This document shows, one piece after another, positions 2,319-11,587 of a DNA stretch of 11,820 nucleotides (within the stretch, counting starts at the first letter, position 1; every line of letters starts with the position of its first letter). The translations under genes were made by a program, and so were the position numbers. The notes under the pieces were generated by a model. The model was not told where the DNA came from, made no database searches, and saw nothing but the letters and a program-made list of their open reading frames with translations. Source of the DNA: Candidatus Methanomethylicia archaeon. Its GTDB lineage: Archaea > Thermoproteota > Methanomethylicia > CALHIW01. Location: contig JAWBQF010000051.1 in assembly GCA_038845975.1 (NCBI GenBank), positions 1 to 11,820 of the forward strand, given 5' to 3'.

Positions 2319-2349
2319 TAAGTTTACTTAGCCTTCTTTGGGGTTATGT

Positions 2350-3543
2350 ATGCGTAATGTGGCTATAGTTGGTGTTGGTATTTCTAGATTTGGTGTTAGG
2401 AATGATGTACGTATTGATGAGCTTGCATGGGAGTCTGTTAAGGATGCTTTAAACGATGCTGGTATTGAACAGAAGGATATAGAGTTCTGTAGTGTTGGAA
2501 CATTCGGCTCTTTTAATGCTGAAATTCTACCAGCAGTTGTATGTTGTGATTATTGTAATTTAAGATTTAAAGGTACTTTAAGAACGGAGGCTGCATGCGC
2601 AACTGGTAGTGCAGCTTTCTTTACAGGCTTCAATGCTGTTGCTTCAGGATTTGCTGATGTTGTTCTAGTATTAGGTGTTGAAAAAATGTGTGAGTCCCCT
2701 ACGCCTGTTGCCGTCGAGTTTATTGGTAGATCTGCAAACTACTTCTGGGAGTTTGAAAACTTCGGTGTAACGTTTCCAGGATATTATGCTCTCCACGCTA
2801 CAGCCTACATGAACAAGTATGGAGCTAGAGAGGAGGATCTTGCTAGGGTTGCTGTTAAGAATCATTACTACGGTTCTCTAAATCCTAAAGCCCACTTTAG
2901 AAATAGGATTACTCTTGAAGATGCTGTAAAGTCAAAATATGTTGCATGGCCTCTTAAACTCTATGATTGCTGCCCTATTAGTGATGGTTCAGCAGCTATC
3001 ATTCTAGCTTCAAGTGAAACTGCAAGAAAGCTTACTGATACACCTATATGGGTTAGGGGAATTGGTGTTTCAAACGATAGTGCTAATATGAGTAGGAGAG
3101 GGGAATTTACAAGTCTTGCTGCAGCTGTAGATGCTGCTAGAAAAGCTTATAGAATGGCCGGTATCGAGTATGATAATCCGTTAAAATATATTGATGTAGC
3201 TAATGTTCATGACTGCTTTACAATAGCTGAAATACTAGCCTATGAAGATCTAAACTTCGCTAAGAGGGGGGAGGGATACCTACTCTTACGTGAGGAACAA
3301 ACATATATAGGAGGTAAAATACCTGTAAACGTTGATGGAGGACTTAAAGCTAAGGGACATCCACTAGGCGCTACAGGTGTAGGTATGATTGTTGAGCTTA
3401 CGAAACAGCTTAGAAAACAAGTTGAAAACGAGAGACAGGCACCTATAGTTAAGGGTAATGCGTTAGCACATAATGTTGGAGGTACAGGACACTACTGCTA
3501 CGTAACAATACTCTCACTAGAAAAGCCTCAGTGGGGTGATTAA
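2350..3543 (+). CDS. Thiolase (acetyl-CoA C-acyltransferase family, archaeal/SCP2-like type)
   Basis: MRNVAIVGVG start (ATG 2350 with GGGG upstream is preferred to TTG 2338), catalytic EAACATG, GVEKM, VHDCFT, GGLKAKGHPLGATG and HNVGG motifs. Confidence 0.93.
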   Translation: MRNVAIVGVGISRFGVRNDVRIDELAWESVKDALNDAGIEQKDIEFCSVGTFGSFNAEILPAVVCCDYCNLRFKGTLRTEAACATGSAAFFTGFNAVASGFADVVLVLGVEKMCESPTPVAVEFIGRSANYFWEFENFGVTFPGYYALHATAYMNKYGAREEDLARVAVKNHYYGSLNPKAHFRNRITLEDAVKSKYVAWPLKLYDCCPISDGSAAIILASSETARKLTDTPIWVRGIGVSNDSANMSRRGEFTSLAAAVDAARKAYRMAGIEYDNPLKYIDVANVHDCFTIAEILAYEDLNFAKRGEGYLLLREEQTYIGGKIPVNVDGGLKAKGHPLGATGVGMIVELTKQLRKQVENERQAPIVKGNALAHNVGGTGHYCYVTILSLEKPQWGD

Positions 3544-3544
3544 C

Positions 3545-4018
3545 ATGTCTAAAATCGAGGGTTTACCAATAATTATAGATCAGAAAACCAAACTACCAAT
3601 CTATACAAGCCTACGTGAATTAAGAATTAATTACCAGTTTGGCGTAAGTAAAGTACAGAAGTTCTTTGATGGATTAAGAGAGGGGATAATCTATGCCTCT
3701 AAATGTAGGAATTGCGGTGAAATATATTTTCCACCACAAGCAGACTGTTCAAAATGTAAGAGTTCAGATATTGAGTTATTTAAGCTTTCAGGAGAAGCTG
3801 AGCTTGAAACATACACCATAATAAATATAAAACCATCAACATTTGCTCATTACAAAGACTATATTGTTGCTATTGGAAAACTTAAAGAAGGAGTTAAAGC
3901 TCTTGCATGGCTTGAAGTAGACGATCCAAGTAAGCTAAAAATAGGGATGAAGCTTAAACTTGAAGTTACTAAAAGGGAACCTGAAGGAATATATACCTAT
4001 GTTTTCAGACCATTATAA
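3545..4018 (+). CDS. DUF35 Zn-ribbon/OB-fold protein, thiolase partner
   Basis: CRNCG-x4-PP-x3-CSKC zinc ribbon followed by an OB fold (ETYTII...YIVAIGKL...LKIGMKL). ATG 3545 has a GGGGTGA SD and begins 1 nt after the thiolase stop. Confidence 0.92.
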   Translation: MSKIEGLPIIIDQKTKLPIYTSLRELRINYQFGVSKVQKFFDGLREGIIYASKCRNCGEIYFPPQADCSKCKSSDIELFKLSGEAELETYTIINIKPSTFAHYKDYIVAIGKLKEGVKALAWLEVDDPSKLKIGMKLKLEVTKREPEGIYTYVFRPL

Positions 4019-5549: not shown

Positions 5550-5772
5550 TTTTACTTTAGTAAGCGTTAACAATCATTAATAAGAAGATAAAACCTAATA
5601 ATGGACAAGGAAAACAATAGTATAGCTAAACGAAACATGGATTAACAGGAAAATAAAAGCTAAGGAATTCATAGAAGATACAATACCAAAATAGAGGTAA
5701 TAAAATATGATTAAGTTAACAAAGCTCATCCCATTATGGTAAGTCTTAAATGCAAGTCTATTTAGAATTATT

Positions 5773-6057
5773 ATGGTTAGACTGAATAGTAAGGGTTTGG
5801 AGTTGAAGAAGCTTAAGATACATCAATCCAGAGGAGATATTAATATAGGTAGGAGAGGAGTTACTGATAATCTTATTAGTGAAGTTAAAAAACATTTAAA
5901 AACTCATAAATGCCTGAAAATTAAGGTTTTAAAGAGTGCTAGGGAATTTATTAGTGATGACGATATTCAAAACATAGCTAAAGCTGTAAGTGCAGCTATT
6001 ATTGATAGGAGAGGGTTTACATACATTCTTATAGATAAGAAATATATAGTTAGCTAG
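5773..6057 (+). CDS. yhbY: YhbY/CRM-domain RNA-binding protein
   Basis: INIGRRGVTDNLISEVKKHL..HKCLKIKVL and IDRRGFTYIL match the CRM pattern; small and basic. CTTAAAT box about 22 nt upstream. Confidence 0.85.
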   Translation: MVRLNSKGLELKKLKIHQSRGDINIGRRGVTDNLISEVKKHLKTHKCLKIKVLKSAREFISDDDIQNIAKAVSAAIIDRRGFTYILIDKKYIVS

Positions 6058-6223
6058 TAGAGGACTGATTAAGCTTTAACTTCATCTCCCTAATTTCCTC
6101 TAGGAATCGCTGTATAGTTCTAGGTAGATGCTCCTCCTGAACTCTTAATATTTCACATGCCCTCCTTAATATTTCCTCTTTCTCCTTAAGCTTAACCCAA
6201 TACTCAGTACTTAGAGAATTCAT
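6050..6223 (-). CDS. Unannotated 57-aa protein, a stand-alone paralogue of the AlaRS helix-loop-helix zipper segment
   Basis: Manual translation MNSLSTEYWVKLKEKEEILRRACEILRVQEEHLPRTIQRFLEEIREMKLKLNQSSTS*. ATG lies 4 nt after the alaS stop, with a GAGGT SD overlapping the last alaS codons. 17/39 ungapped identity to AlaRS residues 741-779. Confidence 0.85.
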   Translation of the reverse strand: MNSLSTEYWVKLKEKEEILRRACEILRVQEEHLPRTIQRFLEEIREMKLKLNQSSTS

Positions 6224-6227
6224 AGTA

Positions 6228-8570
6228 TTACCTCTTAAACTTCTTTTTTAACATTTTCCACTCATTGAATATTTCCTCTACTCTTCTAGGAACATCTTCA
6301 TCTGGAACATTAAGTATTTCCGCTGCCCTCCTCAATATACTCCACTTATCCTCTAAATACTTAATAGCAGCTTTACCTGAGCAGAACTCAATTCTAACAA
6401 TTCCATCCTGTATTCTCTTCGTCCTCATAATAGTTATAAATCCCACTTCTCCTGTTGATTTGCAATGTATTCCTCCACATGCTTCAACATCAACACCAGG
6501 AATCTCAACTATTCTAACCTCTCTACTTGGTACTGCTCCACCCTGATAAATAATGAATCCATACTTTAACTCAGCTTCTCTTCTTGGAATTGTTTGAATA
6601 ATAACTGGATAATTCTCCAATACTATCTGGTTTGCAGCTTCCTCAATTCTTTTAATCTGATTATCTGTTAATGCTTGGTAATGTGTTATGTCTAACCTTG
6701 CCTTCTCAGGTGTTTTCTCAGCTCCATGCTGCCAAACCCATGAACCCAAAACCATGCGTGAAGCAGCATTAACTATATGTGTAGCTGTATGATGTCTTCT
6801 TAAAGCTTCCCTCCTCTCCCTATCAATAACTCCATGTACAGTAACGCCCTCACTAAAGCTTAAGGGATTTTCAACCCTATGGAGAATAACATTACCTATT
6901 TTTACTACTTCAAATACTCTTTTACCGTTAATCAATCCTTCATCATGTAGCTGCCCACCAGCTGTAGGATAAAATAGAGTTTGGTCAAGTACAATGTATT
7001 CTCCAATAATCTTAATGATTTTAGCATCAAAATCATAGGAGTATGGATACTCATAGAAGAGATTTCTTGTTGCAGGAATACCCTCTACAGGTATCTGTTT
7101 GGTCTCTTCATGCCTTAACGGCTCATTCCTCCTAGTAATCATATTGTAAAAGTCTGGAGGAATCTCTATATTAGGTATCTTCATTCTTACTAACTCAGGG
7201 GTTATACCTTCAGATTCGTAAAGCATTATAAGAGTTTTAGTATCTAGCAGCTTACCAGACTTAGCTATCCTATCAATAACTCTAGTTGCACGATCCTTTG
7301 CAGCTTTAAACCTACTAGTCTCTACATCTAGAATTTCCTGTATCTCATTTAAATGCTCCTCCAATTCGGGAGCTAGAGGTTTAAGCTGTTTTGCATGCAT
7401 CTCCACAACATCAATAAGCTGAAAGCTCCAGTTAAAACTCTCAATAAAGCTTAATGCTCTACGTAGAACTACACGTAGATTATATCCTCCACCTATATTA
7501 CTAGGTATCATACCGTCAGCTATAGCGAAAGCTAATGTACGTGTATGATCACATATAGAGTAGAGAGCTTGAAGAGGCTCAATCACTTTTAGAAGCTCCC
7601 CATAATTGGATCCAAGATTTTCAGCTATAATCTTCCTTATAGTACTAATATCTTTAACCTCATCTATATTTAACATACCGGCAAGCCTATAGTAATCTAG
7701 AAGAAGCTTCTCATCAATCCTAACTCCACACATATCCTTCAGTCTTTCAAGAGTAGGCTGAAAGACAACATCATAGCTTGTAGGTGTACCATGTAGTAGC
7801 CATGGAAACCTTTCAAGGCCAGCACCCATATCCACTACTTTATAGGGCATATGTTTAAATCCATCTGGAGCTATTAGAAACTCTGTAAATACAGCATTAC
7901 CTAGCTCTAATCCACGAATAAAATACTCTAAAGAATAACCGAAAGCACCTGTTCCAACCCATAAATCCTCCAAGAAAACAACTTCCTCCGGCCTTATTTT
8001 AAAAACCTCTGTTAACATTTTATAATCCAGCTCTATACATCTATCCTTCCAATAGCCTTCCCTACCATTATATAGACTATGCTGCCCAATCATAACGAAG
8101 CATGTATAATGCTTACCAGTAACTCCTACGTTAGATATATCGTTAAAACGTAAACAGAACTGAGGAATAATTAAAGGGTTTGCTGGAAACTCGAAAACCA
8201 CGGTTCCATCTTCAAGCCTATAGAAGTCAACAATACTTGCAGCTGTAAAGAATAATGGTGGATACCACCTTGATACTACAGGATATCTACCTATACTTTC
8301 ATGTCCATGTTTAACAAAGAAATCCTCAATAGCCTTCCATACCCCAACATAATCAAGCCTTATACTAGTAGGAGAATTACCGATAAACTCATAGTAGCTA
8401 CATGGCTGATCTGGACATACATTTCTATTCTCATCTATAGTCCAAAATCCCCTACCACACTTTACACATGTTCTACGTTTAAACCCTAAATCCACTAGGA
8501 AATCAACTCTATAATACTTATCCCAATTCCTAGAGAAATACTCTCTTAAACCCTCCTTATTAACCATCAT
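6228..8570 (-). CDS. alaS: Alanine--tRNA ligase, archaeal type, lacking the C-terminal globular (DHHA1/C-Ala) subdomain
   Basis: N-terminal CxxC..CxxxxC, YPVVSRW, CLRFNDISNVG, DMGAGLER, DHTR, PSN.GGGYNLR, TLFYPTAGGQ, editing motifs HHTATH and ACGGIH, YQGGAVP, RIQDGIVRIEF. Start could be TTG 8576, ATG 8570 or ATG 8567. Confidence 0.97.
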   Translation of the reverse strand: MMVNKEGLREYFSRNWDKYYRVDFLVDLGFKRRTCVKCGRGFWTIDENRNVCPDQPCSYYEFIGNSPTSIRLDYVGVWKAIEDFFVKHGHESIGRYPVVSRWYPPLFFTAASIVDFYRLEDGTVVFEFPANPLIIPQFCLRFNDISNVGVTGKHYTCFVMIGQHSLYNGREGYWKDRCIELDYKMLTEVFKIRPEEVVFLEDLWVGTGAFGYSLEYFIRGLELGNAVFTEFLIAPDGFKHMPYKVVDMGAGLERFPWLLHGTPTSYDVVFQPTLERLKDMCGVRIDEKLLLDYYRLAGMLNIDEVKDISTIRKIIAENLGSNYGELLKVIEPLQALYSICDHTRTLAFAIADGMIPSNIGGGYNLRVVLRRALSFIESFNWSFQLIDVVEMHAKQLKPLAPELEEHLNEIQEILDVETSRFKAAKDRATRVIDRIAKSGKLLDTKTLIMLYESEGITPELVRMKIPNIEIPPDFYNMITRRNEPLRHEETKQIPVEGIPATRNLFYEYPYSYDFDAKIIKIIGEYIVLDQTLFYPTAGGQLHDEGLINGKRVFEVVKIGNVILHRVENPLSFSEGVTVHGVIDRERREALRRHHTATHIVNAASRMVLGSWVWQHGAEKTPEKARLDITHYQALTDNQIKRIEEAANQIVLENYPVIIQTIPRREAELKYGFIIYQGGAVPSREVRIVEIPGVDVEACGGIHCKSTGEVGFITIMRTKRIQDGIVRIEFCSGKAAIKYLEDKWSILRRAAEILNVPDEDVPRRVEEIFNEWKMLKKKFKR

Positions 8571-8601
8571 AATCAATCAGCCTAACTAAATATATATCAC
8601 A

Positions 8602-10228: not shown

Positions 10229-11587
10229 ATGAGGTGGATTATTTCTATCCTTATAGTATTCCTCCTCTTAGCCTCCTTAACATATGCTTTAGGATTGAAT
10301 AGTAGAAGGGGTGTATTTATACTTTTTACTGATGAGTATGGTGGTTTGTTGAGTAATGCTAATATTATAGCGCAGATAGAAGGGTTCCCACTAGATAAGC
10401 CTTTTACAACCATTATTTATCGCGGTAGAGTTAATGGGAGTTCAATATTTATAGATTATGAGTTGATGAGGGATGTTGTGGAGAGCTGGATTAAAACATA
10501 TCCAAGCGATGAGGAGTCGAAGACAGCACTTCTTATCTCACTATGGATTGTTAGAGATGGTAAAGTATACAGCTTCCCACTAATAACAGTAAGCTACAAT
10601 CCATTAGAGGTTTCAAGAGGATTAGTAGGAAAAACAATAATCCTAGACTTCAAGTCAAATCTATGCATAACCAGAGAAGACCTAGAGGATAAGATAGGAG
10701 TAATGCAAGAATGCGTTATAGTATGGGATCCAGTTCCAGAACTATCATGGGAAACGTCAAGCTACATAGAAACACCAATACTAGTAATAAACAATCAAAA
10801 CTCATATAGTGGAGTAATAAATACTGGTATAAGCATAGTCGCAAACCAAATATCCGAATACAAAATAACACTAGTATTATGCAATAACCTCTCAGCCAAA
10901 CTATACCAGGGACAAATACCAAACATAAACCCAACAATATCAGGAACAAGCAAAAGCGGATACTACTACTATGGAAATAGTCGATATGTATATCCCCAGC
11001 AATCATATTATTTCTATGTTAAGGCCAGGATTGGTCATGCTCATTATAAGGAGGCTATATATTGTGGAGGATATCCATACTATACGGGTAAGGAGAAGAC
11101 TGAGGATTACGTTAAAGACATACAGACAAGTGGAAGCCAAATAATTGGTGGAGTAAAGCAGGGACTACCAGCATGCATAAATGAGATTCTAGATGGAAGC
11201 CAAGAGGAACAATGCATCATATCAAACACAGTATTAAGCGATGGAGACCTAGATGTTAATGAATTAATCTACCTTGGCCAAATCTTTGACTGGTATGATG
11301 TTTACGACCAGGATTTCGAGATAGGAATACCTGTAGGAGCAATACTATCTTATTACTTCGGTATAAGTGGTGCTGTAAAAGCATTCATGAATAGACTTAC
11401 AGTCACATTTTCATCAGGCCACTCAGCAGCAATATTCATAGTTGGATGGTTAGAAAATCTTGGGCAGGAGCAAGGCTCAGGATACAATATCTATGAGCTT
11501 ACATACATAAGAATTAGTAAGTATAGGTATGCTGCACCTCAAGGAACATTTAAAGTTCCTACAGGAGTATACTTTAAATGCGTTTAA
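10229..11587 (+). CDS. Secreted hypothetical protein (452 aa)
   Basis: Signal peptide-like start MRWIISILIVFLLLASLTYA, Tyr/Ser/Gly/Ile-rich body suggesting beta structure, several cysteines, clear promoter and SD. No family recognised. Confidence 0.8.
   Translation: MRWIISILIVFLLLASLTYALGLNSRRGVFILFTDEYGGLLSNANIIAQIEGFPLDKPFTTIIYRGRVNGSSIFIDYELMRDVVESWIKTYPSDEESKTALLISLWIVRDGKVYSFPLITVSYNPLEVSRGLVGKTIILDFKSNLCITREDLEDKIGVMQECVIVWDPVPELSWETSSYIETPILVINNQNSYSGVINTGISIVANQISEYKITLVLCNNLSAKLYQGQIPNINPTISGTSKSGYYYYGNSRYVYPQQSYYFYVKARIGHAHYKEAIYCGGYPYYTGKEKTEDYVKDIQTSGSQIIGGVKQGLPACINEILDGSQEEQCIISNTVLSDGDLDVNELIYLGQIFDWYDVYDQDFEIGIPVGAILSYYFGISGAVKAFMNRLTVTFSSGHSAAIFIVGWLENLGQEQGSGYNIYELTYIRISKYRYAAPQGTFKVPTGVYFKCV

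Follow-up and report, generated by a model that had tools for sequence, protein, structure and literature searches.

Alanyl-tRNA synthetase (AlaRS) is described as the one synthetase with a prototype four-module architecture throughout biology, with few exceptions (PMC10036535, PMC8583063), those stated being the split enzyme of Nanoarchaeum equitans, the mitochondrial enzyme of Caenorhabditis elegans and the mini-AlaRS of Tupanvirus (PMC8887476, PMC8583063, PMC10036535). The helical subdomain of the C-terminal domain of Archaeoglobus fulgidus AlaRS mediates dimerisation via a helix-loop-helix (HLH) zipper, and prokaryotic AlaRS are said to need C-Ala-mediated dimerisation for charging (PMC8583063). 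In N. equitans the enzyme is divided into an α and a β subunit (PMC10036535, PMC6349945). Natural AlaRS without the globular C-Ala are the Tupanvirus mini-AlaRS and the C. elegans mitochondrial AlaRS (PMC10036535, PMC8887476), and the "small-AlaRS" of the Candidate Phyla Radiation (CPR), DPANN and Asgard is described as a bacterial-type enzyme with bacteria-type insertions, lacking the cradle-loop barrel and C-Ala (bioRxiv 10.1101/2023.05.29.542759). Here we analyse a 57-codon open reading frame (ORF) directly downstream of alaS in a Candidatus Methanomethylicia archaeon (GCA_038845975.1). The window, i.e. the stretch of DNA under study, corresponds to the entire 11,820-bp contig C51 (JAWBQF010000051.1) of a 2.77 Mb assembly consisting of 76 contigs, with an estimated completeness of 93% and a contamination of 4.28%. 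The encoded microprotein, termed HLH2, is a free-standing homologue of the AlaRS dimerisation HLH and is predicted to pair with the HLH retained in the neighbouring, C-terminally shortened AlaRS (HLH1).

The relationship between the two elements is evident at the protein level. BLASTP aligned microprotein residues 12–53 without gaps to AlaRS residues 741–782 with 17 of 42 positions identical (E 2e-8), and 17 identities was also the best value for any gapless 42-residue window over the whole AlaRS, the maximum and mean obtained with 200 shuffled peptides being 12 and 9.3, respectively. A profile built from seven close homologues matches the A. fulgidus structures at residues 11–45 of 2zvf_A (E 1.4e-4) and 746–780 of 3wqy_A, and the microprotein itself matches positions 741–784 of the family model TIGR03683 (E 1.5e-5). 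The DNA of the two copies shares 71 of 126 nucleotides and 19 of 42 third codon positions, which indicates that the duplication is old. An earlier note on this DNA had described the ORF as a free-standing copy of the AlaRS dimerisation HLH, diverged at the DNA level with its frame kept open, and these data agree with it on both counts. No Pfam family was matched by the microprotein at E≤0.01, and at E≤1 the 36 short family members introduced below (alignment A2) yielded scattered coiled-coil noise with no family matched by more than 6 members; the name UPF0147, given by JGI to P0008, is absent among the 25 listed of the 70 Pfam families matched at E≤1. The short proteins are covered by no Pfam or NCBIfam family, and in an ESM Atlas search the first match, at 0.82, fell below the usable range.

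The microprotein ORF is very probably a genuine conserved gene. A word-indexed search of 5.8 billion proteins returned seven candidates, all seven 55–60 aa long and 70–100% identical to the microprotein; the alignment of the close homologues contains 34 invariant columns, which lie within residues 8–51 except for the initiator Met, and both ends vary. Five loci were found in a metagenome scan, one identical to the window (L033, on a 73-kb contig) and four diverged (L034–L037), all with the gene order MarC - alaS (782–788 aa) - ORF - convergent YhbY - EamA - RraA - ChsH2-like - thiolase. Between alaS and the ORF, a gap of 4 nt is present in the window and in L033; stop and start overlap as ATGA in L034 and L035, and in L036 and L037 the two genes overlap by 20 nt. 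Ratios of nonsynonymous to synonymous substitution rates (dN/dS; Nei-Gojobori, window against L034, L035 and L036) amount to 0.25–0.36 at dS 0.59–0.86 for the whole ORF and to 0.14–0.29 at dS 0.49–0.63 for its core, residues 8–51 (binomial p 0.0005, 0.0027 and 0.027). They are comparable to the 0.23–0.30 of the neighbouring YhbY gene; the corresponding values are 0.22–0.27 for EamA and 0.12–0.15 for alaS, and comparisons among L034–L036 themselves are noisier (0.08–0.62). The view of the earlier note that the ORF is no recent duplicate and has stayed open is thus borne out, and the ORF is under purifying selection. The central part of the gene (within 6071–6202) differs between the window and L034 at ca. 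2 of ca. 62 nt, and the flanking codons show many synonymous changes; with only ca. 12 synonymous sites in this part, the difference is not significant and the sites are too few for calling a constraint at the nucleotide level.

It is very unlikely that the ORF is a non-functional relic, left over from a tandem duplication or from the 3′ terminus of a native alaS that was displaced, and still open by chance. Such an origin would be in line with its shortness, its lack of a Pfam family and the lack of expression evidence; it is contradicted by the absence of frameshifting indels across lineages at dS 0.6–0.86 with dN/dS well below 1, by homologues in 68 of 151 genomes of another phylum and by fused versions kept in full-length enzymes (see below). 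Moreover, the 3′ flank is occupied by the convergent YhbY gene and not by decayed C-Ala sequence; this gene bounds the unit, leaving no further alaS remnant downstream. An artefact, either a misjoined junction or an origin of C51 from a co-binned Aenigmatarchaeota genome, appears extremely improbable, even though the assembly is fragmented and contains some contamination and alaS looks foreign in the phylogenetic tree. In three further sequencing runs, Logan contigs span the alaS stop and the ORF start with 0–1 differences (X11 record 1, 5700–6673; X13 record 5, 5898–6291; X14 record 8, 6012–6303), and the arrangement recurs on metagenome contigs of 73 and 77 kb. The earlier note had likewise argued against an assembly artefact, in agreement with these bridging contigs and the identical locus L033. 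The composition of C51 fits the rest of the genome, with a tetranucleotide correlation of r 0.985 and a GC content of 34.2% versus a mean of 33.7%, so that the contig looks native. The window thiolase is 59–63% identical to the best copies in same-class relatives, a comparison blurred by paralogues, and there is no other AlaRS-length alaS in the assembly.

The AlaRS encoded upstream of the microprotein is shortened at its C-terminus. It contains PF01411 (tRNA-synt_2c, 1.1e-82) and PF07973 (tRNA_SAD, 5.6e-14), and no DHHA1 or C-Ala domain was detected in it by the Pfam scan. It passes TIGR03683 with 834.8 bits at a cut-off of 744.7, covering model positions 3–782 of 902, and aligns in one stretch to residues 5–785 of the 906 of A. 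fulgidus AlaRS (3wqy_A); the polypeptide therefore stops shortly after the first HLH of the dimerisation domain. The complete AlaRS frames listed for same-class relatives carry 123–141 further residues at the C-terminus. An assignment to the small-AlaRS, as far as that type is characterised in the available part of its source, was rejected on the grounds of this continuous alignment, the retained editing domain, the passed TIGR03683 and the failed NF002436 (153 bits, cut-off 529). The only other alaS match in the assembly is an AlaX-like frame of 239 aa, and four DHHA1 matches lie on other contigs in frames of 188–485 aa. Residues L741, L748, F770 and W773, all within HLH1, are invariant in 21 truncated AlaRS. 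As to the tRNA substrate, ARAGORN found 16 tRNAs in the whole assembly, among them two tRNA-Ala genes with ordinary 5′ halves (C21:17289–17384 and C34:312–407), each of 96 nt and presumably intron-containing.

The arrangement is not peculiar to the window genome and represents a widespread DPANN-type family. An exhaustive profile search of 1.84 billion representatives yielded 45 matches at E≤1e-3, 36 of which are proteins of 37–75 aa. Nearly all of these short members start with Met, and they share a conserved Trp/Phe and a basic stretch, followed by helix 1, a short loop and a helix 2 whose Phe is invariant. The other matches comprise three long repeat proteins (P0009, P0043 and P0034), in which weak repeats add up and which were judged false positives as homologues, the remainder being C-terminal AlaRS pieces or fusions. 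Three proteins of this search deserve mention in their own right. P0017 (238 aa) combines a microprotein-like N-terminus with a body resembling, by eye, a family-4 uracil-DNA glycosylase, either as a true fusion or owing to a lost stop codon. In P0044 (248 aa), an AlaRS C-terminal piece, HLH2 is not appended but inserted between helix 1 and helix 2 of HLH1; the preceding segment resembles a short-chain dehydrogenase, and the contig may be chimeric. The free-standing P0041 (172 aa) consists of a microprotein-like HLH followed by a globular C-Ala-like domain and might be a separate whole dimerisation domain or a gene fragment.

A first profile scan of genome contigs with the close alignment A1 gave no match. 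With a sub-alignment, 20 loci were retrieved from the genome collection; 15 bear the title Candidatus Aenigmatarchaeota (or Aenigmarchaeota), three "uncultured archaeon", and one each Methanosarcinales and "archaeon". At 17 of the 20, a small ORF directly follows an alaS whose product (ca. 770–795 aa) ends 0–32 residues past HLH1. In the remaining three, the element is fused to AlaRS (L065), separated from alaS by two genes (L054) or without an alaS within the 691 nt available upstream (L066). No free-standing copy besides that of the window was found among 301 sampled genomes of its own phylum, in which the other matches lie inside long frames, mostly AlaRS frames of 894–914 aa; a same-genus genome (G001) contributes only an AlaX-like match, which at 62% completeness is uninformative. 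For the phylum Aenigmatarchaeota, to which one of the loci belongs, 151 genomes were sampled. Matches occur in 95 of them, by hand count in a short frame (36–141 aa) in 68 and only in a long frame in 27. An association with the loss of C-Ala, as envisaged in the earlier note, is largely but not strictly observed. When both a short frame and the HLH1 of AlaRS were matched (16 genomes), AlaRS measures 773–821 aa in 14, and 25 of the 27 genomes with long frames only have AlaRS-sized frames of 896–989 aa, all full length. The two others of the 16, G409 and G424, pair full-length AlaRS (913 and 925 aa, with globular C-Ala) with a microprotein one gene further downstream (L097, G409:C69, 546–4018; L098, G424:C2, 381–3936), and the microprotein is thus not strictly tied to C-Ala loss.

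In other lineages, HLH1 and HLH2 reside in one polypeptide chain. The AlaRS of L065, from a metagenome-assembled genome titled Methanosarcinales, has 864 aa; at its C-terminus, HLH1 is followed by a basic linker and by an HLH2 alignable with the microprotein. The short database entries P0018, P0030, P0038, P0036 and P0053 are C-terminal pieces with the same tandem. When P0030 was searched against longer proteins, 10 of 10 matches were AlaRS of 833–866 aa (P0054–P0063), one named by its source as alanine--tRNA ligase of a Candidatus Woesearchaeota archaeon; all contain only PF01411 and PF07973, without DHHA1, and end with HLH1, linker and HLH2. These fused enzymes share with the window the truncated body with the same two Pfam domains, an HLH1 ending in a basic tail and an HLH2 whose second helix contains a conserved R-F. 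They differ in that a linker of ca. 20–35 residues connects HLH1 and HLH2, the latter being a separate gene in the window. The microprotein accordingly represents the split version of an element found elsewhere in one chain with HLH1, which provides a Rosetta-stone hint of interaction. An AlphaFold2 model of the fused C-terminus of L065 (mean predicted local distance difference test (pLDDT) 85.3, predicted template modelling score (pTM) 0.72) shows confident helices at 177–197, 202–225, 245–256 and 260–284. Foldseek retrieved with it only AlaRS/AlaX chains, over the editing part and HLH1, and is silent on the packing of HLH2.

A direct pairing of the microprotein with AlaRS was predicted by modelling AlaRS residues 558–782 (21-row alignment) together with the microprotein (36-row alignment) as a heterodimer pair. 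The complex reached a score of 0.85 (median of three runs) versus 0.02 for the best control, with at least 97% of the contacts agreeing and a pLDDT of 86 for the partner; the 0.85 mark is attained by 58 of 80 solved complexes and by 2 of 110 mismatched pairs. In the predicted interface, AlaRS residues 738–780 (chain residues 181–223), 713 and 715 face microprotein residues 8–51. Equivalent residues would touch each other (741 with 12, 748 with 19), which suggests a pseudo-dimer that is parallel and in register. This predicted interface includes L12 and F40, invariant in the microprotein family, as well as the four invariant AlaRS residues given above. The pairing with the AlaRS zipper proposed in the earlier note is hence supported as a prediction. 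Its further idea that charge differences between the copies suit a heterodimer preference did not hold, both partners being net basic: helix 2 plus tail of HLH1 averages +3.9 and the microproteins have a mean of +3.7 (36 members). We may speculate that the HLH bundle could itself touch RNA, given the basic character of both HLHs.

The evolutionary history of the window enzyme points away from its own class. Its AlaRS is 45–58% identical to those of Aenigmatarchaeota and 36–43% identical to same-class AlaRS (877–962 aa, with C-Ala), one of which (G032) reaches 49%. In a tree of 52 AlaRS (IQ-TREE, LG+G4, quick), the clade containing the window AlaRS nests inside the Aenigmatarchaeota clade with support values of 97 and 100 in the Shimodaira-Hasegawa-like approximate likelihood ratio test and apart from 28 of 29 same-class relatives; forcing it together with its own class costs 101 log-likelihood units and is rejected by the approximately unbiased (AU) test (p-AU 0.00018). 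This nesting and the AU rejection indicate that the two-gene unit was probably acquired horizontally. Most likely, as judged from sequence comparison, an Aenigmatarchaeota-like donor passed both genes of the unit jointly to the window organism, where they took the place of a full-length native alaS. The stretch also occurs in sequencing runs with the label hot springs metagenome, and metagenome-assembled genomes are the source of several Aenigmatarchaeota loci. A separate observation concerns the exceptional same-class sequence L068 (G032:C132, from a genome with 9% contamination), a 909-aa AlaRS with C-Ala that falls into the Aenigmatarchaeota-type clade on a long branch (0.75); its placement is either unreliable or reflects a second transfer.

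On the basis of these data we favour, with moderate confidence in the statement as a whole including the transfer, a scenario in which the microprotein joins HLH1 to make up a four-helix bundle and serves as a stoichiometric small subunit. HLH2 would derive from the helical subdomain of the AlaRS C-terminal dimerisation domain. In the two-gene unit typical of Aenigmatarchaeota, AlaRS would have dispensed with the globular C-Ala subdomain and with the greater part of the long second helix, and the microprotein would supply the missing half of the four-helix zipper in trans; in the Woesearchaeota-type and some other AlaRS this half would be supplied in cis by the fused HLH1-linker-HLH2. Translation of HLH2 is expected to proceed in step with AlaRS, favoured by the 4-nt gap and the Shine-Dalgarno-like motif in the window and by stop/start overlaps in its relatives. 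HLH2 would then bind and pack in register onto HLH1, thereby covering the face used for the homodimer zipper by A. fulgidus AlaRS. The presumed outcome, with corresponding consequences for dimerisation and tRNA binding, is a 1:1 AlaRS-microprotein heterodimer, in which the microprotein acts as a small structural subunit and not as a switchable inhibitor. Coupled translation and the fused forms favour such a fixed 1:1 stoichiometry and hence a subunit over a regulator.

Several points weigh against this scenario and its supports. G409 and G424 with their full-length AlaRS, and L054 (1–4159), in which the microprotein is kept though two ORFs (276 aa on the opposite and 436 aa on the same strand) part it from a truncated alaS, are poorly explained by an obligate replacement subunit. 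As the zipper homodimer of A. fulgidus AlaRS has been solved, the complex score may reflect model memory, and its calibration holds only roughly with the alignments of our own used here. The model of the fused L065 C-terminus does not establish a contact between HLH1 and HLH2, the isolated tandem HLH folds with moderate confidence (pLDDT 70.9, pTM 0.58), and the net basic character of both partners implies no obvious electrostatic drive for heterodimers. The dN/dS values are based on only 57 codons and four lineages, and the only RNA run (X16) contributed one identical contig inside alaS (6519–6731) and none over the ORF, which is uninformative either way. Finally, the clade used in the AU test was named after the tree had been seen, and the composition test of C51 is partly circular since bins are built on composition.

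Id proteins are dominant-negative HLH partners of basic HLH (bHLH) factors, and the microprotein could analogously be a regulator which competes with the AlaRS-AlaRS zipper and tunes the balance between monomer and dimer, the activity or the tRNA affinity. We consider this unlikely. The microprotein consists of the pairing element alone and is predicted to sit on the zipper face, and, according to PMC8583063, archaeal and bacterial AlaRS need to dimerise for charging. However, the ORF lies 4 nt past the alaS stop or overlaps it in 17 of 20 genome loci and 5 of 5 metagenome loci, implying a roughly fixed co-production, and the fused forms fix a 1:1 ratio in cis that would be intolerable for a titratable inhibitor; if dimerisation is essential, a constitutive inhibitor of the only AlaRS of the cell would also be costly. 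A regulatory role is kept alive mainly by G409 and G424, where the microprotein stands beside a full-length AlaRS that needs no replacement, and fits its unlinked position in L054.

Quite unlikely, too, is a function apart from AlaRS, for instance as a basic nucleic-acid- or tRNA-binding protein or with another partner, the resemblance to HLH1 then reflecting origin only. The net basic charge of the family, the fusion of the element to a uracil-DNA glycosylase-like body in P0017 (by eye) and its persistence unlinked from alaS in L054, G409 and G424 are compatible with this possibility. It is at odds with the strong and recurrent linkage to alaS and to nothing else, with fusions to AlaRS in at least 11 full-length proteins versus one other fusion seen, and with the coincidence of the conserved hydrophobic positions with the predicted HLH1 interface.

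Returning to the microprotein as a subunit, a broader form of this proposal can be offered tentatively: in a large archaeal group comprising many Aenigmatarchaeota, Woesearchaeota-type lineages and, by transfer, the hot-spring archaeon of the window, the AlaRS dimer zipper may have been rebuilt as a pseudo-dimer, with a duplicated HLH, fused or as a separate subunit of 45–75 aa, taking the place of the second protomer on a monomeric catalytic chain without the globular tRNA-elbow module. If so, a natural two-subunit AlaRS with one active site would exist, and the housekeeping synthetase operon of a DPANN-type organism would have displaced the native gene of an archaeon with a larger genome.

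The layout of the locus is summarised in Table 1. The position of the 57-aa ORF (6223–6050), its 4-nt distance from the alaS stop and the GAGGT motif are as the earlier note had given them; the four bases of the gap read TACT. The motif ends on the base with which the alaS stop codon begins, and no start codon precedes the ATG in its stop-to-stop frame of 65 aa. The TTG start of alaS is a mechanical call, ATG codons being present at codons 3–4. The 3′ ends of the microprotein and YhbY/CRM genes overlap by 8 nt. Elsewhere in the window, a thiolase gene (401 aa) overlaps a gene for a ChsH2-like zinc-ribbon/OB protein (160 aa; 2338–4018, plus strand), at least three thiolase copies, ca. 61% identical to each other, being present in the genome (window, C13 and C4) besides weaker ones. 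For a 452-aa ORF (10229–11587, plus strand) no Pfam family was found at E≤0.01.

Table 1. Coordinates of the alaS-microprotein unit and its convergent neighbour in the window.
Feature	Position	Strand	Description
alaS	6228..8576	-	782 codons plus TAA stop (6230–6228); archaeal-type alanine--tRNA ligase with catalytic, tRNA-recognition and editing domains and HLH1
HLH1	6231..6365	-	AlaRS residues 738–782; the enzyme's own helix-loop-helix, resembled by the microprotein; predicted contact
GAGGT, Shine-Dalgarno-like motif	6230..6234	-	6 nt before the microprotein ATG; read directly from the sequence
Microprotein gene (HLH2)	6050..6223	-	57 codons plus TAA, ATG start; free-standing homologue of the AlaRS dimerisation helix-loop-helix
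Microprotein conserved core	6071..6202	-	Residues 8–51, helix-short loop-helix; nearly invariant in close relatives; predicted interface
YhbY/CRM-domain gene	5773..6057	+	Convergent; PF01985, 8.7e-13

A search of an open-access literature library returned no description of a microprotein following alaS or of a tandem-HLH AlaRS. Apparently new is the conserved split/tandem arrangement, as deduced from sequence and modelling; enzyme and pairing element are already known, and the role of the microprotein is predicted. In a set of archaeal lineages without globular C-Ala, the pairing helices are present twice, the second copy often being encoded by a microprotein gene of its own that lacks a Pfam or NCBIfam name. 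Provided that the microprotein is indeed a subunit, it would illustrate how an obligate homodimer interface can be internalised and offer a natural system for dissecting the contributions of dimerisation and elbow contact to the charging of tRNA-Ala and to editing. In that case, the few archaeal microproteins to which a role can plausibly be assigned would also be joined by a conserved family with a predicted partner. That a DPANN-type operon has apparently taken the place of a native alaS bears on the gene flow between DPANN and other archaea sharing hot-spring habitats.

Compared with the described systems, the window shares with the split AlaRS of N. equitans, a DPANN archaeon, the distribution of AlaRS function over two gene products. 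However, the N. equitans enzyme is described as split within the tRNA-recognition domain into two large subunits, whereas in the window the body from the catalytic to the editing domain is whole and only the duplicated pairing element is separate. The AlaRS variants of Tupanvirus, C. elegans mitochondria and the small-AlaRS type likewise dispense with the globular C-Ala tRNA-elbow module. They differ by the loss of further domains (editing or cradle-loop barrel), and the portions of the sources available describe no trans-encoded helical partner for them. By analogy, Id-type HLH proteins follow the same logic, as they retain of a larger dimeric protein only the element used for pairing. They are unrelated in sequence to the microprotein, whose short loop makes a hairpin of its helices probable, and the coupled or fused expression of the microprotein argues for a fixed subunit instead of a titratable inhibitor. 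The closest counterpart is the A. fulgidus AlaRS dimerisation domain (PDB 2ZVF, 3WQY), to which the microprotein is homologous over both helices and the loop; the pairing with a second HLH, parallel and in register, is likewise predicted for the microprotein by the complex model. In the window, the element is a separate 57-aa product with a short second helix and without a catalytic body or globular subdomain, and while A. fulgidus AlaRS forms a true homodimer, the partner predicted for HLH1 by the complex model is a non-identical HLH, which would result in a pseudo-dimer.

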